Under the pieces are notes generated by a model, which was given only the letters and a program-made list of their open reading frames with translations, did not search any database and had not been told where the DNA came from. A DNA stretch of 64,000 nucleotides from assembly GCF_009931435.1 (NCBI RefSeq), contig NZ_CP043414.1; one strand, written 5' to 3'. This document shows, in pieces, positions 39,196 through 56,634 of this stretch. The position numbers and the translations under genes were made by a program. The stretch comes from Escherichia coli. Lineage in GTDB: Bacteria > Pseudomonadota > Gammaproteobacteria > Enterobacterales > Enterobacteriaceae. Numbering within the stretch: the stretch's first letter is position 1; every line of letters begins with the position of its first letter.

Positions 39196-40494
39196 TTACA
39201 AACTGCACGCAGGTATGCGTGCTTCATTCACGATTTGCGTAAAACCGGCCAACGAACACATGCCCTGCACGTTTCGCTCTTCACATCCTGCCAGGGTCAG
39301 TTTCACCTCTCCGGGCGGCGTATTTAATGATAGCGGCGTTTTATCACGCATCTGCTGTAAAGTCTGGAAGACCAGCGAAACCTGAATCCAATGGCTGTTA
39401 TCACTTAGCCTACGCCAGCGTTCAAACACCAGTTCACCCCCTGGCGGTGTGTTATCCGGCTGACCGGGAAGCGTCCAGTTGAGCTCCAGTGCGCCGCCGA
39501 GATTTGCCAGATTAGTATCGTGTCCGGCGATAAACAGCACTGAAGTGGGTAATGTCACACCATACACCTGCTTTTGCTGAGGATGTGGCGTCAACGCCGT
39601 CGTGATCAAATCTAATAACGGGGTGGCGCGACTGCGGGCAACCTCTGGCGTGCGTTGTAGCAAATAAAACTGCGCGTTATGCAGGCTTAGCAAGGTGTTC
39701 CACTGGTGTGAATCGGTGATCCTTCCCCACCCCGGCTCCGGCATTCCCTGTGCTTGTTGCAGGAGAAATATCTCCGTCAGCATTGACGCCAGGCTTACCG
39801 CACCGGTTAATGAGACATTGTCGGCGCTCACCTTGAGTTCCGATGGTAATACCTGCGTTAATGAACAGCTTTCGTCCTGTTTCTCACGGTTAAGGCACAA
39901 GTTTGATTGTGGGAAATTAAGCACCTGTTCCAGTTCGCGAAACGCCGTTTGCCGATGCCCGGTAAAGTCAGCAATTGACCCTCCTGCCCTGCTGAGGATC
40001 GCGTCAGTCACGTTCGCGTTATCCAGTTGGCAAATGCCAGTTTTTAGAGGATTAAATAACGGATCGGGACTGGACGTATCTGCCTGGGTATGTACGGTTA
40101 TTGCGCAGTCAGGTGCCAGCCCGGCGGCGAAGGCTTCGCCTGTTTTACGGGTACGCTCGTCGACATCAGCAATAATCGCGACCTGACCAGGCTGCGGGCA
40201 GCCCTTTTTCGCCAGCAATCCGTCAGCCACCAGACGCTGGCGTTGGTAATGCCCGAGATAAGCGATTAGCTCACCACCGCGCGGTGTCAGCCACCCCAGT
40301 TTTACCGGCCATGTTGGCCATGCGTCTGGGGTGACATCCTGCATCAGTTGCGTGGCCTTGGTTGGGGCACGCACACCATGACGACTGACAATCACCACAC
40401 TTTCCAGCTTCAGCTCCGGCTCACTCTGAGCGAATGCAGATTGCGGGGTGAACGGAATCAGAAGAGATAAGAATGGGATCAAGATCGCTTTCAT
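39196..40494 (-). CDS. appA: Periplasmic phosphoanhydride phosphatase / phytase AppA
   Basis: ORF 39196..40524; start at MKAILIPFLSLLIPFTPQSAFA; RHGVRAP histidine acid phosphatase motif. Confidence 0.9.
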   Translation of the reverse strand: MKAILIPFLSLLIPFTPQSAFAQSEPELKLESVVIVSRHGVRAPTKATQLMQDVTPDAWPTWPVKLGWLTPRGGELIAYLGHYQRQRLVADGLLAKKGCPQPGQVAIIADVDERTRKTGEAFAAGLAPDCAITVHTQADTSSPDPLFNPLKTGICQLDNANVTDAILSRAGGSIADFTGHRQTAFRELEQVLNFPQSNLCLNREKQDESCSLTQVLPSELKVSADNVSLTGAVSLASMLTEIFLLQQAQGMPEPGWGRITDSHQWNTLLSLHNAQFYLLQRTPEVARSRATPLLDLITTALTPHPQQKQVYGVTLPTSVLFIAGHDTNLANLGGALELNWTLPGQPDNTPPGGELVFERWRRLSDNSHWIQVSLVFQTLQQMRDKTPLSLNTPPGEVKLTLAGCEERNVQGMCSLAGFTQIVNEARIPACSL

Positions 40495-40532
40495 CGATAT
40501 GTTTCCGCTTTTCATATCCGACATTATTGATT

Positions 40533-40564
40533 GCCTGATGCGACGCTAATGTGCCTCATCAGGC
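40533..40564. repeat. REP palindrome
   Basis: gcctgatgcgacgctaatgtgcctcatcaggc between appA and appX. Confidence 0.65.
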
Positions 40565-40573
40565 TTACATTCG

Positions 40574-40666
40574 TTAACTTTTCAGACGCGGGTCCAGCCA
40601 TACCAACACAAGGGTGGAGAGCGAACACATCAACAAAATGCCGACGAACCAAAGTAAATACCACAT
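40574..40666 (-). CDS. appX: Small membrane protein AppX (cytochrome bd-II accessory subunit)
   Basis: Not in ORF track; minus-strand ATG at 40664-40666 gives 30 aa MWYLLWFVGILLMCSLSTLVLVWLDPRLKS. Confidence 0.7.
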   Translation of the reverse strand: MWYLLWFVGILLMCSLSTLVLVWLDPRLKS

Positions 40667-40678
40667 TGTTCCTGCTCC

Positions 40679-41815
40679 TTAGTACAGCTCGTTTTCGTTA
40701 CGGCGGAGAGTTTCTGTCGTCATGCGCCCCCACATTTTGTAGTAGCTCCAGAAAGTGTAGAGCAACACAATGGGCAAAAATATCAGCACGATTACCAACA
40801 TAATGCTCAGCGTCAGCTGGCTGGAAGTGCTGTCCCACAACGTCAGGCTGGAGATCGGACTTACGCTCGAAGGCATGACAAAAGGGAACAGCGTGATGCC
40901 TGCCGTGAAAATCACGCCAAATTGCATCAATGATGCCATCAAAAATCCCCAACCCGGGCGACCACGATAAATCGCCATCACCGTCAGCAATGGGCAGAAG
41001 AACCCCAGCAGCGGGAAGATCCACAAAACGGGCGATTCGACGAAATTATTCATCCAGGCACCAGGTAGCACTGCCACCAGTTTCATTAACGGATTGGAAG
41101 GACCGTTAGCATCCTGGGCGAGCAGTACAAAGCCATCAATACCGACCCACAGCCAGTAACCCGCCAGCAAAAAGCACAGCATCACCAGCAGTGCGGCGCG
41201 TTTGGTCGCCAGCTGTGAACGCAGATGAATCACACCAACAGTTTTTAGTTGTAACCAGACGCCACCTTGCAAAATCACCATCCCAAGGCTGAGCAATCCG
41301 CACAATAAAGGGAATGGCGTCAGCAGTTGCCAAAAACTGCCGAGATATTCCACGCGTAATTGCGGTGTGAAGGCAAACGGCACGCCGAGCAGCAAGTTGC
41401 CGAAGGCAATACCGAAGACTACCGGCGGCACCAGACTGCCGATGACCAGTCCGGCATCCCACATTTTACGCCAGCGTGCATCGGCGATTTTTCCGCGATA
41501 ATCAAAGGCCAGCGGGCGGAAGAACAACGAGCACAGCACCAGAATCATCGCCACATAAAAGCCGGAAAACGCCGCTGCATACACTCTGGGCCAGGCGGCA
41601 AATAATGCCCCACCTGCGAGGATTAACCAGACCTGATTGCCTTCCCAGTGCGCGCCAACGCTGTTTATCACTATCCGGCGTTCATCATCATTACGCGCCA
41701 CCAGCGGCAGCAAACAGCCAATCCCCATGTCAAATCCATCGGAGATCATAAAGACCACCAGGATCACGCCAATCAGCAGCCACCAGATGAAGCGCAATGT
41801 TTCATAATCAAACAT
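40679..41815 (-). CDS. appB: Cytochrome bd-II ubiquinol oxidase subunit II
   Basis: 378-aa polytopic membrane ORF following appC. Confidence 0.9.
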
Positions 41816-41826
41816 GATTTTCTCCT

Positions 41827-43371
41827 TTACCCCTGTTGCTGCGTCGGTTGTTCACTCTGCATCGCGCTCGGCCCCAGACGGGCATATTTCTGCATCAGGT
41901 AGACTTCGGCGATTAAGAACAGGGTGTAAAGCCCTACGATCATGATCAGTGAGAAAGCCAGTTGTCCTGTGGTTAAGGCGGAGTGCGCGGAGTATGTCGG
42001 TAAGATGTCCTGTATCGCCCACGGCTGACGACCAAACTCGGTCATAAACCACCCGGCTTCAATCGCAATCCACGGCAGCGGCAAACTCCAGAGCGCCATT
42101 TTCAGTACCCAGCGATGCTGGTCGATTTTGCCACGCAGCGTCTGGAAAAGCGCAATCAGCATCACCAGTAGCAGCAGAGAACCACAGCCCACCATGATGC
42201 GGAAACTCCAGAATACCGGCGCAACCTGAGGTATCGCGCCACGCATCGCCGCCTGGTACTGTGCAGCTGTGACATGGTTCATATCCGGCGCATAGCGGGA
42301 GAGCAACATGCCGTAACCAAGGTCGCCTTCCAGCTCCCGGAATGCCTGCAACACATGCGGCTCACGATTGCCTTGCGATATTTCCTGCATTAACAGCCAG
42401 GCCATACGTCCGCGTTGCAAGCGTGGGTAGGTTTCAGCCATCAAATTCTTCAGACCCGGCACGGGTTTATCTAATGAGTGAGTGGCGAGGATCCCTAGCA
42501 GCGCAGGAATTTTGATGGCAAAGGCGTTACGCTCTTGATCCTGTTCCGGCCAGGCAACTACATGGAACGGTGCAGGTGCAGGTTCCGTTTGCCACTCCCC
42601 TTCCATTGCCGCCAGTTTTACCGGTTGTACTTGCGCGACTTCATACGCAGAACTGTCTCCGAGTTGCAGCGTACCGATAATCGCCAGAGTACCGAAGACG
42701 GAACCGATGGCAAACGAGCGTAATGCAACATCGCGCTCCCGTCCGCGCAGTAAATACCAGGCGCTGATCGCCATAATAAACATGGCCCCGGTCACGTAGC
42801 CCGCCATTACGGTGTGCACAAATTTCACCTGGCTGACCGGGTTAAAGACCAGCTCGCTGAAGCTGGTCATTTCCATACGAAGGGTGTCGATATCAAAATG
42901 CGCACCGGTCGGATATTGCATCCAACCGTTGGCATTCAATATCCACAACGCAGAGAGATTTGAACCGAACGCCACCAGCCACGTTACCAGCAGGTGCTGG
43001 TATTTATTCAGCCGTTGCCAGCCGAAGAAGAACAGCCCGACAAAGGTGGATTCGAGGAAGAAGGCCATTAATGCTTCCATCGCCAGCGGTGCGCCAAAAA
43101 TATCGCCCACATAGTTGGAATAGAATGACCAGTTAGTACCAAACTGAAACTCCATGGTCAGGCCGGTAGCCACGCCAAGAGCAAAGTTGATACCGAAGAG
43201 CTTACCCCAGAAGCGCGTCATATCGCGGTAGATTGTTTTGCCGGTGACCACGTAAATGGTTTCCATGATAGCCAGCAAAAAAATCAGCCCCAGGGTAAGG
43301 GGTACAAATAAAAAGTGATACAGCGCGGTCAGAGCAAACTGCCAGCGCGATAAATCAATGACATCCCACAT
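41827..43371 (-). CDS. appC: Cytochrome bd-II ubiquinol oxidase subunit I
   Basis: ORF 41827..43377; start at [24 protein letters not shown]. Confidence 0.9.
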
Positions 43372-43504
43372 GCGCACTCCTGTAGGCGAAGAGAGAAAAA
43401 TAACCCGTTAATGGTAGATCTCCCTCTTTATCCTGAAACTCTACGACCAGAGGTATTCGCCGATTGCGATATTCATAAGCCTGAAAGCGATACTTACCGT
43501 CTTT

Positions 43505-44362
43505 TTACGTCGATGCACCTTCCGCCAGCCACTGACATACCTCACTAAGCCGCTGCGCAGAGTCGACCAAATCTTCTGGCGCTGCCAGCACCACTTCCGG
43601 TATTGGGCAGATTTCATAACTCTCAAGTAACGGGCCTTTTAAGGTGTCCGTACAGCGTAAATGCCAGACATGCCGCAGGCCGGTCGCGTTGATATAGCTC
43701 TCGCCGTAGCCAATGGTGCGAATCTGAATATTTCCCGGCCCACAGAGACGTGAGAGAAAAAGCCGATCAGCCTCGCTGATAGGTAATTGCGTCAGATTAA
43801 TGCTGTGCGGCTGCGCGTCAGGATTACGTACATGTGCCAGTAATTCATGCGCCAACGGTAGGCCATTCATCAGGCCATCAATGGGCGGCGGTAACAGCGA
43901 ATCTGTCGGCAAGACGTTTTGCGTTGCCGCCTGCCACAATGCCAGCGGCGCGCAGCCAGCCTCCAGTTTGTCCTCCAGCAACTGTTCACCGCGACGTCTG
44001 CGAACCCGCCATAATCCGCAGAAGATCGCCTCCTGAATTTCACTTTCACTACCATCAGCCTGCTGAATGAGCACTGACACTTCCCCTTCCCCGAGAAGCG
44101 TATTGATAAAGTGACGATCGTCGGCGTTGAGATTGAACAGATCGACTGCCAGCACCTCACCCAGCGGCGGCTGGCGTTCGCTTAGTTGATGTTGTAACTC
44201 GTTTAATAGCGCAATCACCTGCGGGCTATGAGCACATTGCTCCAGGGCCGCCATACTCGGTTCATCATTCACCTGACAGGTAATCGGCAGTGGATTCATG
44301 CTAAAACTATCATCATCAGGCTGCGTTCCGGGCCCCAGTAGATGGAAAAAAGTTTCGCTCAT
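43505..44362 (-). CDS. hyaF: Hydrogenase-1 operon protein HyaF
   Basis: 285-aa ORF, last gene of the hya cluster. Confidence 0.85.
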
Positions 44363-44757
44363 GAGGCACGCTCCTGTTGCGGTTCAATAAGCCCGCGCAT
44401 CAGGTTTATCAGTTCCGCCCACGGGTGAATACCATTCAGCACGCCGCGATAGCTACCACCGGTAAAAACCAGTGTGGCGGGAAAACGAAATACGCCAAAA
44501 CGATCACCGATGGCTTCGCTTTGCTCAAGGTCGGCAATCGCTACCTGCCATGTATAATCAGGAAACTCGCGCAGTAATTCGCCAATCATTACCGGATTAT
44601 CGCTGACCTCTGGCGTGCGTTTCGGGTCACTGCTTAATAACACCACACCGTCTGGCGCTTGCGTAAGCCAGTCGTCAAGACGGGATTCACTGATCGGCGT
44701 CCAGCCGCGCGCCAGCATACGTTGCCACAACGCATCAAATGGCGTGTCGTTGCTCAT
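44359..44757 (-). CDS. hyaE: Hydrogenase-1 operon protein HyaE
   Basis: 132-aa ORF, overlapping-stop coupling. Confidence 0.85.
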
Positions 44758-45341
44758 TCCTGCTCCTCCAGCGTCATCCGGTACTGGCGCAAGCGAACGC
44801 CTTCGTAGTTTTCCATCGACAGACAGTCATAATTGAGACAGCGCGATTCATTAGCCGGTTGCGGCTCAATTCCCCACGCAGCCAGTTGCGCCAGCGCCCC
44901 CTGTTCCGCGGCGGGCAGTTGCTCCCGAGCCAGTTCGCTCAGGCTACCGCCGTAGTCGTCGAGCATCGCGGGTTGCAGGCCGACGAGGGCAATATGTGCT
45001 GGCAGATTTCCGCGGATATCTGCCAGCGCCAGTACTTCGGAGAAACTGTTCTGGTGCAGGCTCATTTTCTTCGCGCTGAGATAGGCCGGAATGCGTTCTC
45101 CGGCATACGTTCGTAGCGTTCCGGGTTCCAGCCCGTAATCAATGGCGTCGAGAATCAGCAAGTGGCTGGCGCTTTCGACATACCCCAGCAAGTTCAGTCC
45201 CTGAGTACCGCCATCGACAATTTCCACTTCCTCGGGCCAGTGGTAATGAGCATACAGGCGTTCCGCCACCCGCACGCCGAAGCCTTCATCGGCCCACAGC
45301 AGATTGCCCAGCCCCATTACCACCACGCGTTGCTCGCTCAT
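44754..45341 (-). CDS. hyaD: Hydrogenase-1 maturation endopeptidase HyaD
   Basis: 195-aa ORF. Confidence 0.85.
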
Positions 45342-46045
45342 GAACGCTCCTTGTTACTTATTTTGCCAAATTTGTGGCTACGGTAGCCGTTGACCATGGT
45401 GGAGATCACTGTGTCGTCGGACATGATGTCTTCACGCAGCGCCATGTAGACATGACCGATAACAAACGCGCCAATCAGCCACATCCCCAGCCGATGCCAG
45501 CTGTGAATGTCCATTGAGTTGCCGCCCGTCCAGTAGAAAAACTCCACCACATAACGGAACGGCGCGAAAATAGCGTACTGGCTATGTTCGCTGTACAACG
45601 CAAAACCGGTGATGATCATAAAGACGGACATCAGGAAATAGCCGAACATTGCCGCCTGAGCGATGGGGTTATGGCCTATATCGGCACTCGGACGTTTTGC
45701 CAGAAACAGATACCAGCGGATTTCATACCACACGCCCTGCCACCAGCTTTTACGCCATACCGGCACGATAAACAGCTCGCGGGAGTAGCGATTGCCGACA
45801 AAAGCCCAGTAGATCCGCATCAGCAAGACCACGGTAAAAACCATCCCGGCGCTGAAGTGAATTAACCTGATGTAGCCCATATAAAACAGATACGTCGCCT
45901 CACCGCTGACCGAAGGCAGCGGCTTGCCGATAAAGTAACCGGTGACCATCAACACCGCCATGCATAACACCGTCAGCCAGTGCCATATCCGCACGGGTGC
46001 TTCAAAGACATAGTGACTGACAACGTTGTCGCTTTTCTGTTGCAT
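45338..46045 (-). CDS. hyaC: Hydrogenase-1 b-type cytochrome subunit HyaC
   Basis: 235-aa membrane ORF. Confidence 0.9.
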
Positions 46046-46063
46046 GATGATTCTCCTTCGCTG

Positions 46064-47857
46064 TTAACGCACCTGCACGGAGATCAGCTCGCTACCGTCG
46101 TCGCCCAGCACGTGTGTTGAACAGGCGAGGCACGGGTCAAAGCTGTGCAGAGTACGAAGGATCTCCAGCGGTTGCTCGGGGATCGCCATTTTGGTGTTCA
46201 TCAGCGCGGCTTCATAAGCGCCAATTTGCCCTTTGGGGTCGCGCGGGCTGGCGTTCCAGGTGGTCGGCACCACACACTGGTAGAGATCAATCTTGCCATC
46301 GCGAATGGCAGCCCAGTGGCCTAACGCCCCGCGCGGCGCTTCGGTAAAACCGACACCACGGCACTCTGTCGGCCAGGTTGCAGGTTCCCATTTTTCAGTG
46401 GAGGCGGTGGCAAGATTGCCGTTTTTAAGGTTGGTCATCAGCTTGTCGAAGAAATACTGCAACTTACCTGCGGCCCACTGCGCTTCGTGCGCGCGACACA
46501 AAATGCGGCCTAACGTTGACTGGATGCCGGAAAGCGGCAGGTTCAACGCCGACATCATGCGATCGACCGACTCAACAGTCGCAGCATCGCCTTTGTGATA
46601 AGCGATCAATGTGCGTGCCAGCGGCCCCACTTCCATCGCGTTACCGCGCCAGCGTGGCGCTTTGATCCACGAGTAGCGTTCCTGTTCATTCAGCTGCTGA
46701 ATGTTGGTATCGCTGCCTTTGACATCGCCGGGGTTGTACCACGGGTCGGTAATACCATCGAACGGATGACGCCCGACCTGATCGTTGGGATAACGATACC
46801 AGGCGTGATCGACAAACTCCTGCACCTGCTGCGGATCAACCAAATCCACTGGCAGCACATTGTTGAAGTCGCCGTTAATCACCGCGCCGCCAGGCATCAG
46901 CAGACTTTTCTCGCCAAAGTCGTTGGCAATATCCGGGAACGCCCCGTAACTGAGGACACATTTATCAGAAAGACCAGTGCCGATTTCGCTCCACGGTTTG
47001 TTGAACTGACCGATGGCTAAAGCGTCGGGGATCATCACGTTATTAATGAAATCCGCCGTGCGGGTAATGATCGACTGCACCAGATTCAGGCGTTCCATAT
47101 TGACCGCCCCGACCGCGCCGCTTTCGTCAATGTTAATAGCGCAAGGCATTCCGCCGACAATCCAGTTTGGATGTGGGTTTTTACCGCCAAAGACCGCGTG
47201 GATTTTGACGATCTCACGCTGGAAATCGAGAGCTTCGAGATAGTGGGCAAAGCCCATCAGGTTGGCTTCTGGCGGCAGTTTGTACTGCGGGTGCCCCCAG
47301 TAACCGTTACGGAAGATCCCCAACTGGCCGCCTTCAACGAATTTCTTCAGGCGGTTTTGTACGTCGAAGAAATAGCCAGGTGATGATTTCGGCCATGAGG
47401 AGAGACTTTGCGCCAGTTCGGAGGTTTTCCGGGGATCGGCTTTCAGCGCATCTAACACATCGATCCAGTCCATCCCGGCAAGCTGATAAAAGTGCACCAG
47501 ATGGTCATGGCACCAGAGCGTCGCCAGCATAATGTTGCGGATGATATTAGCGTTGTCCGGCACTTTAATGCCGATAGCATCTTCGATGGCATAGACCGAA
47601 GCCAGAGCGTGTACGCCGGTACAGACGCCGCAGATACGTTCCACGAACGCCCACGCATCGCGCGGGTCGCGCCCTTGCAGAATGATCTCCAGCCCGCGAA
47701 ACATGGTGCCGCAGGAGACGGCATTGGTGATCACATTCTGATCGTTAATATTCACTTCACAGCGCATGTGGCCTTCAATGCGCGTAATCGGGTCGACCAC
47801 CAGGCGGCGTCCGGCATTGTTGATGGTGTATCCCTGAGTTTCGTACTGAGTGCTCAT
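46064..47857 (-). CDS. hyaB: [NiFe]-hydrogenase-1 large subunit HyaB
   Basis: 597-aa ORF; N-terminal [10 protein letters not shown] and C-terminal DPCLACSTH Ni-binding motifs. Confidence 0.95.
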
Positions 47858-48972
47858 GCCTGTTTATCCTCATTGCCTGGCTGTTGTTCGGTTTCTGTAG
47901 GTTGCTGGTTATGACGTCTGCGCTGATCAACAGCGCTGGCGACCGCATGTACACCAACAGCCGCAGCCACCACGCCAAGCGCGGTTAAACCGACGGTGTC
48001 GGCGGTGGAATGAGTACCCATTTGTGGAATATCGACTACGCGACTGTAGAATGAACCGCGATCCCAGAAACCATTTTCCGCACAACCCAGACAGCCGTGA
48101 CCAGACTGGATCGGGAAGGAAACGCCATCGTTCCAGCGTGTGGAGGAACAGGCGTTATAGGTGGTAGGCCCTTTGCAGCCCATTTTGTACAGACAGTAAC
48201 CTTTACGGGCAGCGTCATCATCCCAGCTCTGCACGAACTCTCCGGCGTCGAAGTGAGCGCGGCGATAACATTTATCGTGAATACGCTGACCATAGAACAT
48301 CAATGGACGGCCCATTCTGTCGACATCCGGCAGACGATCAAACGTCACCATGTAAGTAATGATGGCGCTCATCACATCCGGGATCGGCGGGCAGCCCGGC
48401 ACTTTAATGATCGGTTTGTCGGTGATCACTTTGTCGATTGGTGTGGCCTGCGTTGGATTGGGCCGCGCGGCCTGCACGCAGCCCCAGGACGCGCAGGTTC
48501 CCCAGGCGATAATCGCACTGGCTCCGGCAGCGGCACGTTTGAGTTTCTCAATAAACGGTCGACCGCTGCTGATACAGAACATCCCCTGCTCGCCCAGCGG
48601 CGGATTACCTTCTACTGCGAGGATATATTTGCCATTATATTGCGTGATGATGTCTTCAAAGACTTCTTCTGCCTGGGTTCCGGCGGCAGCCATCAGGGTA
48701 TCGTCGTAATCGAGGGAAATCAGGGAAAGGATGACGTCCTTCGCCAGTGGGTGAGCGGAGCGGATAAAAGATTCGGTACAGCAGGTGCATTCAAGACCGT
48801 GGATCCACACCACAGGAATGCGCGGTTTGTTCTCCAGCGCCCAGGCAATCTTCGGAGCCATTCCCGCGCCTAATCCCAGCGAGGTGGCAGCCAGACTGCA
48901 ATATTTGAGAAAGCTGCGCCGGGTAACGCCCTGACGCCGCATGGCCTGGTAAAATGTTTCCTCGTTATTCAT
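47854..48972 (-). CDS. hyaA: [NiFe]-hydrogenase-1 small subunit HyaA (Tat signal)
   Basis: ORF 47854..48999; start at [23 protein letters not shown] (twin-arginine). Confidence 0.9.
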
Positions 48973-49356
48973 ATCGCACGTCTCTTCTCCTTGCGACACC
49001 GGCAGGACACCGGGCGCTTATGGTCGGCAAGCGACGTCCCTGTAGCAAGGCAAACCATCGCTTCACGTGAGATGCTGAAAACGAAAGCTCATCCTTCTGC
49101 ACTGGCGCACGTCGCCAGATAGTATTGTTAATAAAGCGTAGTGAAACTTTTGCACAAAACAATACAAACCATGTGGTTTTATCTTTTAGCGATAAAAATG
49201 GACCTATTTTTCTTTTGCAGGGCATTGGGGACGTTTAGCCAGTTGCTAAACGAGTAAATGAGAAGGAATTCATGGTGATGAAATGATCAAACTGCTGTTA
49301 TTTCACGCTATCAATGCGGTTTTGGCTGTTTTTCAGGCAAACGAACAAATTAGGGG

Positions 49357-49397: not shown

Positions 49398-49485
49398 GGA
49401 AGTGTGGCCGAGCGGTTGAAGGCACCGGTCTTGAAAACCGGCGACCCGAAAGGGTTCCAGAGTTCGAATCTCTGCGCTTCCGCCA
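49398..49485 (+). tRNA. serT: tRNA-Ser (anticodon UGA)
   Basis: 88-nt sequence GGAAGTGTGGCCGAGCGG...TTCGAATCTCTGCGCTTCCGCCA with long variable arm and cuUGAaa anticodon loop. Confidence 0.95.
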
Positions 49486-49976: not shown

Positions 49977-50507
49977 TTACTGCTCTGGCTTTTGTGGCCA
50001 TTCCGGGTTCGCTGAATCCACCCGGCTGAGCAGGACGCTGTAACGCTCCCATGCCGACAGCCGGGTTCGCTCTTCTTCCGTGGCCATATTCAGCCTTACT
50101 GACCGCTCCAGAAGCCGGATGATGGCATCTGCTTCACTGAGCAGCGTGGCCTTGCGTTGCTCTGTCTGTCTGTTGACTTCCTCTGGCGAATACTCACGTT
50201 TCCTCACCTGACCGTCCAGATACATCCACTGCCCCGAATCGTCTGCACGGCGGTTCGCCGTTATATCTGCCACCTCAACAACACTTAATCCCGCCGGATT
50301 AAGCGTTGAGGCATCCCGGGTGATGGCAACGATAATATTGTTATCATCGTAAGCCATCTTTATTGTGTCTTTCTGAAAGTTACTCACTTCTTCATACCAG
50401 TTTCTTCCGTCCTCTGAAAACAACCAGATAACATCAAAATTTTTTGTCAGTTGATACTGAGCAACGGTTTTGGGATTACCTGCTGTAATATTTTTTAAGT
50501 GCTGCAT
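49977..50507 (-). CDS. tfa: Tail fibre assembly protein Tfa
   Basis: 176-aa ORF immediately downstream of the tail fibre gene. Confidence 0.8.
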
Positions 50508-50510
50508 TAC

Positions 50511-53096
50511 TTATACCTGCGATACGTTAAACCATGTGCCGTTTATGTATTTTTGCACCGGCCGGTAAACCGCTGAGTTATCGCCATCAGCATCCCCGAC
50601 AAGACAAAGCCCCGTAATGACATGGCCGGACTTCTCATACGTCACGCCTTTTTGCATGCCCTGAACAACACGCGTACCCAGCCGGATATCCCTGACATAG
50701 CGGATATCAAAATTACTGTAATCGGAAGGATTAACGCGCCCGGACACATTCAGCCCTTTACTGACCTGAATGCTGCCGTTTGTAAAGCGCATTACACGTG
50801 CGTTACCGGCGTAAACATCAAGATTACCGTCGCCGTTTTGTTTCAGGCCTGTGTCGCCCCTCCCCAGCGCAAGTGAATGACCGCCCAGCGTATTCTGTGC
50901 ACCGATACCCACCGCGCCATCCAGGGTCCCGCCCGTTGTCGTGAACAGACGCTCCCAGTCCGCCTCAAAGCCATAGCCATCACGGGCGGAGCGGTAAAAT
51001 ATCCCGCCATTCCGGTAATTCACCCGAAACTGGACCGCAGGGCAGCTGCCTTCCCCTGTATTAAAATGAAGAATTAAGGATGATGCGCCACCATCCTGTG
51101 CACAATAAGCGCCACTGTCCAGGTTCCAGGCGACGGCATCTGTATCGGCGAGCGTTTCCCCGGTTTTTCCCAGCGCAAAGGCCGGTGGCTTGTTTTTCGT
51201 GTTGTAGTCACGACGCCAGCCAGGGGAATAACCATCACCATGATTAATATAGGTAAACTGCGCATTCGCCGTTCCACTTCCGCTGGATGTTGTCGGTGTG
51301 GTTATGCGGATCGTCATCGCTGACTTTATCCCCATCACCTCAATGACAGCGCCGGCGAGATGAATATTTCCGCAGCCCGTATCCGTGATGATTTTATTAT
51401 TACCGTAAGACCAGGAGCCCTTGCACATCCAGTATGGGTGGTTAAATGCGCCCTGAGACTCCAGCCACCCGATAAACTGTGCGGTCGTCCAGTCTCCTGT
51501 CGTTGTGCTTACGGCCCCACCGAAAGCACGGCAGGCACCAATATTTTTCGTAAAGGTGTCTTTGTCGGGGACATCCGCACCGTTCTTATCTTTCTGCAGT
51601 CGTTTCTCAGCATTCTCACAGGCGGCTTTTACTGCCTTTGGTGTTGCCGCCAGTGACTCGGAAGTGCTGTTGGTTGCACTGCTGAGCTGGACTATCCCCT
51701 TTTTCGTCGTGCTCGCATCCTCAAGCGCCACGGCAGACGCAATATCCTCCGCCCGTTTTGCCGCAGTCTCAGCGCGCGTTGCCGCGGATTCTGCCGTGCT
51801 TTTGCTCTGTGCTGCCGCTGTCGCACTGCCAGCTGCCTCTGTCGCCTTCGCGGATGCCGTCGTGGCACTGCCCTGCGCCTCTGACGCCAGCCTTGCCGCC
51901 TCATCTTTTGAAGCTGACGCCGATGATGCTGATGACGCCGCCGAACTGGCGGACGATACGGCTGCCGTTTTTGAGGATTCTGCGCTGGTTTCCGACGCTT
52001 TCGCGTTCGTCTCGGATGTCCTCGCAGCGGAAGCAGACCTCGCTGCTGCAGTGGCCTGTTCAGTGGCTTCGCCAGCCTTCGTTGTGGCTGCTGAAGCGGA
52101 CGATGCGGCGCTTTCTGCCGATTTTCCGGCGGCGGTGGCACTGGCTGAGGCCTCCTCCGCTTTAACTGACGCCTCACGGGACGATGATGCAGCGGCAGTT
52201 TCTGAGCCTGCTGCTGCGGAGGCACTCTGTTCCGCTGCCGTTTCAGAAGACCTGGCGTTCGTCTCAGACGTCTTTGCCGCCTTCGCGGAATTTCCTGCCG
52301 CCGTTGCCGAGGAAGCTGCGCTACCGGCGCTCGAGGCTGCGCTCGTTTCTGATGATTTTGCCGCCTCTTTTGAGGCCGCCGCATCCCTGGCTGACGTGGC
52401 AGCTTCTGACGCTTTCGTGGTCGCGGTGGATGCAGACGTGGCGGCTGATTGTTGTGACGCTGCCGCATTCGTTTCTGACGTTTTCGCGGCACCGGCACTG
52501 GTGGCCGCCGCGCTTTTTGAGGACTCTGCAGCGGCAGCACTTTTTGATGCCTCAGCGGCCTTTGCTGAGGCTGTTTCTGCGCCGGAAGACGCTTCCTGAG
52601 CCGACGTCGCAGCCTGTCCGGCGGACGTGCTGGCGGCGCGTGCTGAGTCCGCAGCATCAGTCGCATGGGTTGCCGCCTCACGGGCTGATGTACCGGCATC
52701 GCTGGCGGATTTTTTCGCGGCTGCCGTGTTCTGTGCCACTGCGGACGCGTTACGCGCCACCTCTTCCACCATCAGTTCAAAACGGCGCAGTGCCTCCGGA
52801 CGGGCATCATCCTCCGTCATGGCACCGAGAAAATCATTCAGCGTACCGGGTTGGGAATCTTCATACACGGTGATGGTCCCGGCATGTGAAGGCGGAAAAC
52901 CGTCAACCAGCAGGATGACACCGTACTGGCCGTACTCAACGTCCATACTGTAACGCCCGGCTTCATCCGGATTTTCTGAGGCCACCGTGTTCACCACCAC
53001 CGTGGTACTGTTACGTTTTGCTTTCAGCTGAATGGTGCAGTTCTGTACCGGTTTACCTGCACCGTCTTTCAGCACGCCTGAAATCTTTACTGCCAT
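50511..53096 (-). CDS. stf: Side tail fibre protein Stf with long Ala/Ser/Thr-rich repeat region
   Basis: 861-aa ORF; conserved N-terminus (MAVKISGVLKDGAGKPV...), central about 350 aa low-complexity repeats, distinct C-terminal domain. Confidence 0.85.
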   Translation of the reverse strand: MAVKISGVLKDGAGKPVQNCTIQLKAKRNSTTVVVNTVASENPDEAGRYSMDVEYGQYGVILLVDGFPPSHAGTITVYEDSQPGTLNDFLGAMTEDDARPEALRRFELMVEEVARNASAVAQNTAAAKKSASDAGTSAREAATHATDAADSARAASTSAGQAATSAQEASSGAETASAKAAEASKSAAAAESSKSAAATSAGAAKTSETNAAASQQSAATSASTATTKASEAATSARDAAASKEAAKSSETSAASSAGSAASSATAAGNSAKAAKTSETNARSSETAAEQSASAAAGSETAAASSSREASVKAEEASASATAAGKSAESAASSASAATTKAGEATEQATAAARSASAARTSETNAKASETSAESSKTAAVSSASSAASSASSASASKDEAARLASEAQGSATTASAKATEAAGSATAAAQSKSTAESAATRAETAAKRAEDIASAVALEDASTTKKGIVQLSSATNSTSESLAATPKAVKAACENAEKRLQKDKNGADVPDKDTFTKNIGACRAFGGAVSTTTGDWTTAQFIGWLESQGAFNHPYWMCKGSWSYGNNKIITDTGCGNIHLAGAVIEVMGIKSAMTIRITTPTTSSGSGTANAQFTYINHGDGYSPGWRRDYNTKNKPPAFALGKTGETLADTDAVAWNLDSGAYCAQDGGASSLILHFNTGEGSCPAVQFRVNYRNGGIFYRSARDGYGFEADWERLFTTTGGTLDGAVGIGAQNTLGGHSLALGRGDTGLKQNGDGNLDVYAGNARVMRFTNGSIQVSKGLNVSGRVNPSDYSNFDIRYVRDIRLGTRVVQGMQKGVTYEKSGHVITGLCLVGDADGDNSAVYRPVQKYINGTWFNVSQV

Positions 53097-53154
53097 ATTC
53101 GTTCCACAAATAAAAAAGGTGCCATTTCTGGCACCCGGTCTGGTTTCTGAACAT

Positions 53155-56100
53155 TCAACTGATACTGATACCGGCTGTGGATTTCTTCATCACCACAACC
53201 AGCAAATCGCTGATGCTTGCCGTGGGATACCAGTCATTCACCAGCCACGCTGATACCGAAAACTCCAGCGTCATGTGACCGCGACCCGCTGGCATATCAA
53301 TCACACCTGTATAAATCAGCGTATTATCCAGCGCGGTACGGTTATAAATTTCAGCACCGTTTTTCCGCACTATCAGACGGCATGATGAATAAATGTCATT
53401 ATGCTCTCTCTCATGTCTGGCACCGCTGAATGCCACCGCCGGAATGACAATTTGCCGGTCAAAAGGCTGATCGTCATAAACCCTGACGGTGATGGTCCCT
53501 GATGGCCACCGTTCCGGTGCACGGGAGTCCCGGGGGAAAGGTTTACCCACTGTTTTAACGAGATCGCCTTCAATCTGGTTGGCGGACAATTTTCCCAGAA
53601 CCCGACAGTTCTCGTTAATCGTGACGTTGTTGAGCGTCCCGGAGTTCGCATTCACGTTACCGCTGATATCGGCATTTTTAGCAGTCAGCTTTCCGTCCGG
53701 TGTCAGGGAAAAGGCCGGGGGATTGCCGCCGCTGGTAATGGTGGGGGCCGTCAGGCGCTTCAGGAACACGTCGTTCATGAATATCTGATCGCCCTGACCA
53801 ACAAACATCGGTTTTGTGTTGCCATTCGCAGGATTAACCATCGCAATCCTGTCCGCCGCCAGCAGCACCTGACTCTGCATGCCGTCAGGGGTGTTCTCAA
53901 TACCGGCACCAATACCCGCGATATAAAGGCGTCCGTCCTGCATCTGCTGCAGCTTCACAGCCCACATGCTGTTCAGGTTATTATTTGTATCAACCTGAAC
54001 CTTCTGTATCTGCTGAATTGCCGCACTCTGGTCTTCCAGTTTCTTATTGACGGTCTGTGTGATTTCATTGCTGACATCCGTAATGGACGTCCTGATTTCA
54101 GCCAGATCAGGCGCCAGCTGACCGTTATCAATCTGCGTCCACAGCTCCTGAGCCAGATGGGTTTTTCCTATCTCGCCTTTGAAAAAATCCAGATAGCCGG
54201 ATGCATCATCACTCGGCTGACCAACAGCCTCCACGAATGCCGATTTGCCAACGGTGTTCACACTGCGGATATAAAAGTAATAATCATGGCCCGGTTTGAT
54301 ATTGATACTGGCGGCTATCCAGTACAGCGCCGTGCCAAGATAGCGTGCTGTGGTTTCAACCTGCCTGATATCCGCAATCCGCTTTTCCGAGAACCAGAAC
54401 TCAAACTGTACCGTCGGATCATAAACCGCAAGATGCGGCGTGGCGGTTATCTGAAAATAGCCCGGCGTCAGCTCAATCCGCGACGGCGCTGCCGGTGCGG
54501 CAATCCGGAACGATACCGACGCCGGATCGCCCTGCTGCCCCCACGCATTTACTGCCCGGACTGTCAGCCTGTAGTTCCCCAGCGCCAGTTGTGTGAAGCG
54601 GTAAGTGGTTTCCGTCGTCCGGGCCGTGCTGACCAGCCACTCACTGCCGTCATCCGCTGTTACGGTCAGACGGAGCAGGAAGCTCACGCCCTTCACCACC
54701 TTCGGCGTGTCCCAGCGCGCCAGCACCTGATATTCCCCGCTGTCTGCGGTGACTTCGGCAGTCAGGTGCTGCACCGCTGGCGGCGTGACACCATTCACCG
54801 TGCCGCTCTGGTCGCCGTCAAAGTGCGCCCCGTTATCCACGATGGCTTCTTTTTCCGGTACATGCTGCACGGCGGTGATGGCATACGTGCCGTCGTCGTT
54901 CTCACGGATACTCACGCAGCGGAACAGGCGCTGGCGCAGCGTCGGCAGCTTCAGCCCCCACACGCTGTATTCAGCAACGCCGTCAGGAACACGGCTCACT
55001 TTCACCTTCACGCCGTCGGTGACGGACTGAACCTCCACGCTGACCGGATTGCCACTTCCGTCAACCAGGCTTATCAGCGTGGTACCGGAGGATGGCAGCG
55101 TGATTTCACGGTCGAGCGTCAGCGTCCGGGTCTGGCTGTTTACCGCCAGCACGCGCCCGCCGGTGCTGATACCGGCATAGTCATCATCACAGATTTCAAT
55201 GACATCGCCCGGCACATGGCGAAGCCCTTCTGCGCCCACGCTGAAGTCCACGGTCTGCGTTTCCAGCAGTTCTGTTTTAATCAGCCATAGCCCGGCGCGA
55301 TGTGCCTGCCCCCGGCTGGTACAGCCAAAGGCATCCATCTTCGTGACGTTACGACCGTAACGGGCAATGGCCTGCGTGTCCTCCACAAGCTCTGTCGCCG
55401 TCTCCCAGCCGTTATTCGGGTCAATCCAGTTCACCTCAACGGCATTATGGCGGTCCTTCAGGGCGCTGAAGCTGTAGCGGAACGGCGCGCCATCATCCGG
55501 CATCACCACATTACTGCGGTTATAGGTCCACACCTTATCTGATGGTCGGTCCTGCACGAACGTCAGCGTCTGCCCGTTCCATACCGGCATACAGCGCATC
55601 GCCGAGCAGAAATCACTGAGCACATCCCACGCCTTGCGCTGTGTTGTCAGGTAAGCGTTACAGGTGATGCGCGGCTCCGTGCCACCAAAGCCATCCGGCA
55701 CCGACTGGTCGCAATTCTGGCCGATGACATACAGCGCCCATTTGTCCACATCCGCCGCACCGAGACGCTTCCCCATGCCGTAGCGCGGATGGGTCAGCAT
55801 ATCCCACAGACACCAGGCCATGTTGTTGCTGTATGCCGGTTTAAACGTCCCGTCCCAGATACCGCTGTATTGCCGCGTCTGCGGGTTATAGTTCGACGGC
55901 ACCTGCAGAATGCGCCCGCGAAGATGATAATTACGGCTCACCTGCTGGCTGCCGAACTGCTCCGAATCCACCTGCACGCCGACCAGTGCCGTGTTCGGGT
56001 AGCACTGTTTCACATCGATGATTTCGGTGTATGACGACCAGAGCGTTTTGTTCTGCAACTGGTCTGTGGTGCTGTCCGGTGTCATCCTGCGCATCCGGAT

Positions 56101-56634
56101 ATTGAACGGGCGCGGCGGCAGGTTATCCACCACCACCGAGGCCAGATACTGCGAGGTGGTTTTGCCCTTAATGGTGATGTCTTTTTCCGTCACCCAGCCA
56201 CCGTTACGCTGTATCTGAACCAGCAGGCGGACTTCCGACGGATTCCTGTCTCCCTTTGAGGTGGTTTCCACCAGTGCCTGTACACCGAAGGTAAAGCGCA
56301 GACGGTCGATGTTTGCCGACGTGATGGTCCGGGTGATCGGCGTGTCATATTTCACTTCCGTACCCAGCACCGTCTCGGAGCCGGAGGATTCAAATCCCTC
56401 CGGTGGTGACTGCTCCTGCTCACCTGCCCGGAACACCACCGTGACGCCGGAGATGTTGGTATTCCCCTCAGTGTCCAGCACCGGCGTACTGTTCAGCAGC
56501 ACACTTTTTAATCCCTCCACCGGACCTTCAACCGGCCCTTCACTGATGGCATCGATCACACTCAGCAACTGCGTGGACTTCAGGTTGTCCTTCGCTTCGC
56601 GCGGGGTATGCCCCTTACTGCTGCCTTTACCCAT
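53155..56634 (-). CDS. J: Tail tip / host specificity protein J
   Basis: 1159-aa ORF starting [21 protein letters not shown], recognisable lambda J-like sequence. Confidence 0.9.

Follow-up and report, generated by a model that had tools for sequence, protein, structure and literature searches.

In phage lambda, the 'specificity region' of the J protein (amino acids, aa, 960-1132) was described from 1207 natural homologues as an independently exchanged module (Maddamsetti et al., 2018; PMC6646904). Brödel et al. (Nature 2024; PMC11338833) grafted onto lambda J, at aa 964, C-termini taken from two gpJ proteins of natural prophages, A8 and 1A2. With OmpC variants supplied from plasmids to a strain lacking lamB and ompC, both chimeras were found to use OmpC, and gpJ-1A2 was used in the Eligo vector EB003 against Shiga toxin (Stx)-producing E. 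coli (STEC). A structure of the A8 tip type, a sister of the one described below, in complex with OmpC has been public in the PDB since January 2026. Here, we describe the J gene in a 64,000-nucleotide (nt) stretch of Escherichia coli DNA (assembly GCF_009931435.1, contig NZ_CP043414.1), the whole of which is called the window. It is the central tail-fibre and host-specificity gene of a lambda-like prophage that lies beside tRNA-Ser and hyaA. The encoded protein is a natural three-part mosaic: hub and fibronectin type III (FNIII) domains of the lambda/434 type are followed by a longer variant of the shaft and then by a conserved joint with an exchanged tip, for which OmpC is the probable receptor. 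Window J is itself a catalogued and very common variant, and OmpC use by its tip type was shown in 2024.

Mosaic structure of J

The translation of the gene ends in exactly the C-terminal residues quoted in a first-pass annotation, which was made from the DNA alone. The gene and its parts are as follows.

53155..56634, minus strand: gene J, tip attachment / central tail fibre protein; intact single open reading frame (ORF) of 1159 aa, from the ORF list and translation
54220..56634, minus strand: aa 1-805, hub domains and two FNIII/immunoglobulin (Ig) domains of the lambda/434 type; 95-100% aa identity to lambda/434 in every 40-aa window
53800..54219, minus strand: aa 806-945, the first of two divergent modules; identities of 12-75% with lambda and of 42-72% with the Stx-phage forms
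53626..53799, minus strand: aa 946-1003, conserved 58-aa joint in the lower fibre, containing NVTINENC; aa 961-1000 are 97% identical to lambda
53158..53625, minus strand: aa 1004-1159, exchanged Ig-like receptor-binding domain of the 1A2 / Stx2a-long-tail / PPompW type, 156 aa, a type carried by long-tailed Stx2a phages and by O157 prophages integrated at ompW; assigned from identities, Pfam, AlphaFold2 (AF2) and Foldseek

Lambda J (NC_001416, 15505-18903) was used as the reference. Overall identity was 84% in BLASTP and was unevenly spread. When the DNA was compared in windows of 60 nt, 54-60 of the 60 bases matched lambda over nt 1-2400 of J. Identity collapsed over nt 2400-2820, with about 84 gap positions, recovered to 166 of 180 nt over nt 2821-3000, and from about nt 3000 to the end of the gene fell to 27-37 matches per window of 53-60 nt. 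In the protein, the worst 40-aa windows of aa 806-945 were only 12-55% identical to lambda, and the windows of aa 1001-1150 were 30-52% identical. A drop in nucleotide identity from about 96% to about 55% inside a single gene cannot be produced by chance. The joint (aa 946-1003) is the likely site of recombination between the modules.

The first-pass annotation had taken the N-terminal ~1000 aa as lambda-like, which holds for aa 1-805 and for the joint but overlooked the divergent module at aa 806-945. Its second claim, that the last ~170 aa are unlike the LamB-binding C-terminus of lambda, was borne out: the sequences diverge from about aa 1004 (window 53625), with about 40% identity thereafter, and high identity to lambda J is clearly absent from the last 200 aa. 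The interval that it had marked, 53155-53670 (aa 989-1159), covers the divergent tip well. Its further suggestion of a mosaic J with a swapped receptor-binding domain is supported by the alignment breakpoints together with the 94% identity of the tip to that of gpJ-1A2.

The first divergent module falls between the Pfam domains Ig_J_second (which ends at aa 818) and Phage_Tail_Tip (which starts at aa 872). Compared with lambda and 434, it holds a net insertion of 28 aa at aa 836-866 (window 54037-54129), and the BLASTP alignment shows the gaps. Under the nomenclature of Ge & Wang (2024; PMC11101478), aa 806-945 match the alpha-helical shaft and upper beta-prism fibre of lambda, a part that undergoes a flip and partial refolding on opening of the tail. 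If helical, the 28 extra residues would add roughly 4 nm to the shaft. In the phage database, the long version recurred in many lambda-like phages (1H12, Lambda_ev087 and Chlobot; 95-97% nt identity), and divergence of these matches was confined to the sequence beyond nt 3030-3104, where the receptor-binding domain lies. The shaft and upper-fibre module is a separate exchangeable unit of J.

All of the expected Pfam domains (Phage-tail_3, FNIII-A_GpJ, Ig_J, Ig_J_second, Phage_Tail_Tip and Ig_GpJ_C) were found in J above the curated cut-offs and in the expected order, with Ig_GpJ_C, the C-terminal receptor-binding domain, on aa 1030-1159 at 128 bits. The exact protein sequence is on record at NCBI as WP_161524867.1 / QHQ00180.1, and the 90%-identity cluster that holds it has 6699 members.

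Tip family, prevalence and distal loops

Sequence searches and a structural model indicate that the swapped tip is homologous to the lambda receptor-binding domain and shares its family and predicted fold. Using phmmer, the tip matched the lambda J chains in the PDB with E = 1.5e-58 and 'A8 gpJ 713' (PDB entries 9wca/9wcb) with E = 4e-80. An AF2 model of the tip was built on 48 sequences, with a mean predicted local distance difference test score (pLDDT) of 82.6, and its best matches in Foldseek were 9wcb, 9wca, 8xck and 8xcj. Entry 9wcb is the open state of the A8 gpJ 713 central tail fibre with OmpC G17 from E. coli EDL933, and 8xck and 8xcj are lambda with LamB. The mismatch to lambda seen in the first pass is thus real as divergence, but the tip is not unrelated: it remains homologous (about 40% identity; E of about 1e-58 to the lambda chains).

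The 1A2 and A8 genes were taken from the supplement of Brödel et al. (PMC11338833), the text of which carries frameshifts from optical character recognition (OCR). 1A2 was therefore compared using a frameshift-tolerant protein-to-DNA dynamic programme and then placed in a multiple alignment; blastn with the OCR-damaged 1A2 tip DNA gave no similarity to the window. In the multiple alignment, the window tip was 40% identical to lambda, 41% to 434, 61-62% to A8/phi330, 63% to BP-4795, 95% to Stx2a_1447 and 94% to gpJ-1A2. The 1A2 tip is 97% identical to that of Stx2a_1447 and is essentially that of PPompW_132418; the A8 tip shares 98% identity with phi330 and 61% with the window tip.

Natural tip types were surveyed by tblastn with the window tip in 50,697 phage records, and the J tips fell into discrete types relative to it. 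Identities of 89-96.5% were found in the long-tailed Stx2a phages, WGPS2, JLK-2012, the PPompW prophages, 2G7b, PhiR55_1, PhiR5_1 and PhiR40_1. These were followed by 1H12, BP-4795 and the Stx1a phages (61-64%), phi330, YYZ-2008 and WGPS8 (about 60%), lambda (44.7%), and 434, mEp460 and the Stx2c phages (40-44%). The window tip lacks the high identity to lambda aa 976-1132, contact loops included, that marks the LamB-binding tip; lambda S1012 is replaced by proline and lambda D1107 is kept as D1134. Nor does it belong to the A8/phi330 type, which is characterized by a short first loop (L1), a long second hairpin (L2; ENFNSNNQQS) and at least about 75% identity to A8, compared with the 61-62% observed. 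It aligns without gaps to the 1A2 / Stx2a-long-tail / PPompW type at near-identity, with 95% to Stx2a_1447 and a value of 94% to 1A2 that is limited by the OCR text.

To measure prevalence, 5426 complete E. coli genomes were searched with the 486-nt tip by megablast at a coverage of at least 80%. The window tip type was present in 3364 of these (~62%), with a median of two copies per genome, and 2588 records matched at 90% identity or more. The corresponding lambda tip DNA (L001 4419-4904) was present in only 98 of the 5426, always at 99% identity or above, and the five listed genomes that carry it are laboratory strains (K-12, B and DE3 derivatives). The window tip type is much commoner in E. 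coli genomes than the lambda tip; the LamB-binding tip of laboratory lambda is a rare form among sequenced E. coli, and its binding domain looks nearly absent from wild isolates. The discovery value of the window gene is low: the protein is on record, no other J tip is as widespread among E. coli prophages, and a near-identical tip has already served to establish the receptor class.

Nine strands were assigned in the AF2 model of the tip. From the alternation of these strands, we infer that four loops lie at one end of the domain, predicted to face the receptor.

53500..53541, minus strand: predicted distal loop L1 (AF2), aa 1032-1045; holds P1040, the homologue of lambda S1012; within-type entropy 0.39 bits
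53395..53412, minus strand: predicted distal hairpin L2, aa 1075-1080, EREHND; varies more within the tip type than any other segment, mean entropy 1.52 bits
53323..53331, minus strand: predicted distal loop L3 (AF2), aa 1102-1104; beside the homologues of the lambda indel site 1077/1078; entropy 0.47 bits
53206..53241, minus strand: predicted distal loop L4, aa 1132-1143; includes D1134, homologous to lambda D1107

Lambda positions 1012, 1048/49, 1077/78 and 1107, which are critical for host range or are sites of lineage-defining indels (Maddamsetti et al., 2018; PMC6646904), map to window residues 1040, 1076/77, 1105/06 and D1134, respectively, and the four predicted loops coincide with them. 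L2 also aligns with E953-S962 of phi330 (window 1075-1079), a hairpin predicted to enter the OmpC barrel, and L4 with phi330 A1015-P1020 (window 1132-1137), predicted to contact the OmpC rim (PMC12502783). Variation was calculated from 22 unique sequences of the same type, obtained by a search of 5.8 billion proteins that returned mainly short J fragments; three rows with more than eight mismatches in aa 1047-1069 were left out of the test as suspected frameshifts. Variation was greater in the predicted loops than elsewhere in the domain (mean entropy 0.58 versus 0.28 bits; permutation P = 0.0014), and site 1134 was polymorphic within the type (D/G/N/K).

Two further sites may be mentioned. 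The proline at aa 1032 (GKPFPR; window 53539-53541) is rare: alanine occupies this position in 21 of 24 same-type sequences and in all of the phages compared, and proline was found in just one other database sequence. Residues 1118 (R/H/S/Y) and 1120 (H/V/D/G) are highly polymorphic within the type (window 53280-53288 for aa 1118-1120); by strand alternation they would lie at the end opposite the receptor, where they may face the fibre or an interface between subunits.

Receptor assignment

By homology, we infer that window J probably recognizes OmpC, likely in its common non-K-12 variants, rather than LamB. The assignment draws chiefly on gpJ-1A2, which delivers DNA into an MG1655 strain that lacks lamB as well as ompC only when a suitable OmpC is supplied (PMC11338833). 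In the source data of that study, delivery at the highest multiplicity of infection (MOI) was at least 76% for 20 of 23 OmpC variants and failed on G1, G2 and G40. When the OmpC proteins of EDL933 and MG1655 (K-12) were compared, 1A2 worked with that of EDL933 only, whereas A8 accepts K-12 OmpC (PMC11338833); a later preprint states that 1A2 recognizes EDL933 OmpC instead of LamB. Related tip types lend support, since phi330 requires OmpC, as determined by Keio knockout and complementation (PMC12502783), A8 uses it, and 434 is stated to do so (PMC12502783). Consistent with the assignment, the hosts used to propagate isolated phages with this J tip type were E. coli C or ECOR13 rather than MG1655. 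The different outer-membrane receptor anticipated in the first-pass annotation would follow from the analogy with the LamB-independent, OmpC-using and 94%-identical 1A2 tip. A literature search found no receptor data for phages with this tip type, including the PhiR phages and 640R1: a paper using the PhiR phages deals with ManYZ and SNIPE rather than outer-membrane receptors, a review of STEC phages names only BamA, FadL and LamB, for short-tailed phages, and a 2026 preprint on receptor prediction covers Drexlerviridae GpJ rather than lambda-type tips. Particles of the prophage should depend on OmpC and not on LamB, and would therefore be unlikely to plate on K-12.

Several points weigh against this assignment. 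Eight of about 168 tip residues differ from 1A2, namely P1032A, R1073K, R1076K, N1079T, R1118H, D1134N, S1152A and S1157T (window to 1A2). The predicted contact loops hold four of these, and D1134 is homologous to the critical lambda residue 1107. In lambda, four substitutions suffice to add a new porin, OmpF (PMC6646904). The 1A2 sequence, read from OCR-damaged text, has about nine uncertain positions, and the orientation of the loops comes from strand order rather than from coordinates. The loop lengths of the window tip resemble those of the LamB binder lambda and not those of the OmpC binders A8 and phi330. Finally, the prophage is represented in the window by its tail end only, which bears on whether it is inducible. 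Loop length was rejected as a predictor of the receptor: lengths are lambda-like here and yet the 1A2 twin binds OmpC, so that loop architecture alone does not predict the receptor.

The alternative that survives best is that window J uses OmpC with a spectrum of variants other than that of 1A2, or another or additional porin such as OmpF, through the eight substitutions; we regard this as unlikely. The accepted spectrum could differ from that of 1A2 because four of the eight differences fall in the variable predicted loops, which account for 22% of the domain and contain the most polymorphic sites within the tip type; R1073 adjoins L2, A8 and 1A2 already differ in the variants that they accept (PMC11338833), and the OmpF gain of lambda took as few as four changes. 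The substitutions are, however, mostly conservative (R/K, N/T, D/N, S/A and S/T) and occur in natural members of the type: the tip in the E. coli genome SOI121 is identical save for aa 1032, and PhiR55_1 also has D1134. It is a tentative idea that changes in or next to L2 (R1073, R1076 and N1079) together with D1134 could retune the tip to other OmpC variants, for example of the K-12 type, or to a second porin. If such retuning were real, the natural alleles would be a ready palette for retargeting lambda-based delivery vectors. Natural loop variants of this kind are candidate parts with which to adjust the range of OmpC variants accepted by lambda-derived vectors.

That J is a relic in a defective prophage with no present role in adsorption is improbable. 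The window holds only the tail end of the prophage, lom is missing, and the closest complete genome has a pseudogene annotation for the neighbouring side tail fibre gene (stf), but J, stf and the fibre assembly gene tfa are intact ORFs in the window, the upstream tail genes are present, and isolated plaque-forming phages carry J genes that are 96% identical; a relic would in any case leave the identity of the tip domain unchanged. Less probable still is a tip that has diverged in sequence and still binds LamB as in lambda: although the fold, the loop lengths (with just one 1-aa gap) and D1134, equal to lambda D1107, are shared, the tip is only 40% identical to lambda, and the 94%-identical 1A2 tip works in a lamB-deleted strain in a manner that depends on the OmpC variant and reached only ~5% of wild-type MG1655 cells, in which LamB is present, at an MOI of 50 (PMC11338833 and its source data).

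With OmpC as the probable receptor, a mechanism can be carried over by homology from the lambda-LamB complex; the titles of the A8-OmpC entries show the same closed and open states. A trimeric tail tip that opens on receptor binding would be expected for window J from the identity of aa 1-805 and the lambda structures. The side tail fibre, with a tip like that of P2 H, would give a first, reversible adsorption. The J trimer would then present three Ig-like domains, the distal loops of which may enter the extracellular mouth of a trimeric porin, most likely OmpC. Binding to the porin would spread the Ig-like domains apart and twist the fibre, the helical shaft would flip and release the FNIII domains, and the tail tip would open for ejection of the DNA.

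Gene neighbourhood and comparison with named systems

J sits at the end of the tail gene cluster H-M-L-K-I-J and is followed by the side-fibre genes.

50511..53096, minus strand: side tail fibre gene stf, 861 aa, directly downstream of J; Pfam phage_tail_N on aa 1-134
49977..50507, minus strand: tail fibre assembly protein (chaperone) gene tfa, 176 aa; Pfam Caudo_TAP, E = 5e-30

The gap between J and stf is merely 58 bp (window 53097-53154). Lom, which occupies this position in lambda, 434, phi330, BP-4795, Stx2a_1447, PhiR55_1 and 640R1, is absent from the window. Stf is itself a mosaic, with an N-terminus of the lambda Stf type, a long Ala/Ser-rich repeat region and a P2 gpH-like C-terminus. 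Its N-terminal part resembles the Stf of PhiR55_1, and its C-terminal ~330 aa are 57.6% identical to P2 and 76% to the P2-like phage vB_EcoM-12474. Window Stf can be viewed as a natural counterpart of the lambda-P2 STF chimera engineered by Brödel et al.

The end of the prophage adjoins tRNA-Ser (anticodon UGA; 49398-49485, plus strand), beside the hyaABCDEF and appCBA operons (window 39196-48999). With this tRNA and hyaABCDEF/appCB as neighbours, the flanking DNA is therefore ordinary E. coli chromosome. The J-stf-tfa block was found in complete E. coli genomes at up to 98.2% nt identity. SOI121 carries a prophage with a block of that identity at the same chromosomal site, and its annotated syntenic region has the gene order of the window ORFs: tape measure, M, L, K-like peptidase, I, J, stf and tfa.

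Among described proteins, the gpJ-1A2 chimera has the nearest tip with experimental characterization, 94% identical and without indels, and its N-terminal part is of the lambda type, as in window J. Its fusion point, which is lambda aa 964 and window aa 992, falls in the conserved stretch that forms the joint of window J. It is engineered, however, being lambda up to aa 964 and thus without the long shaft, whereas window J is natural and has the shaft that is longer by 28 aa (aa 806-945). The long-tailed Stx2a phages and O157 prophages (Stx2a_1447/WGPS2, JLK-2012 and PPompW_*) have tips that are 94-96.5% identical and J proteins of 1157 to 1159 aa, but the N-terminal 800 aa are 45-92% and the shaft module 42-72% identical to those of window J, and lom lies downstream. 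The isolated lambda-like phages vB_EcoS-640R1, PhiR55_1 and PhiR46_1 combine the same three modules, with 94.5-96.3% nt identity over full-length J; their tips differ from the window tip at a handful of loop residues and, unlike the window, they have lom between J and stf and other Stf C-termini. The A8 gpJ and phi330 J proteins (9wca and 9wcb; PMC12502783) match the window tip model in fold (Foldseek E = 2.8e-19) and are identical in the last 21 residues, but their L1 is six residues shorter and their L2 hairpin six residues longer. Lambda J (8xcj and 8xck) is 95-100% identical over aa 1-805 and the joint, with the same domain order, the same tip fold and near-equal loop lengths; it differs in its tip (40% identical), in a shaft module that is 28 aa shorter and in its receptor, LamB.

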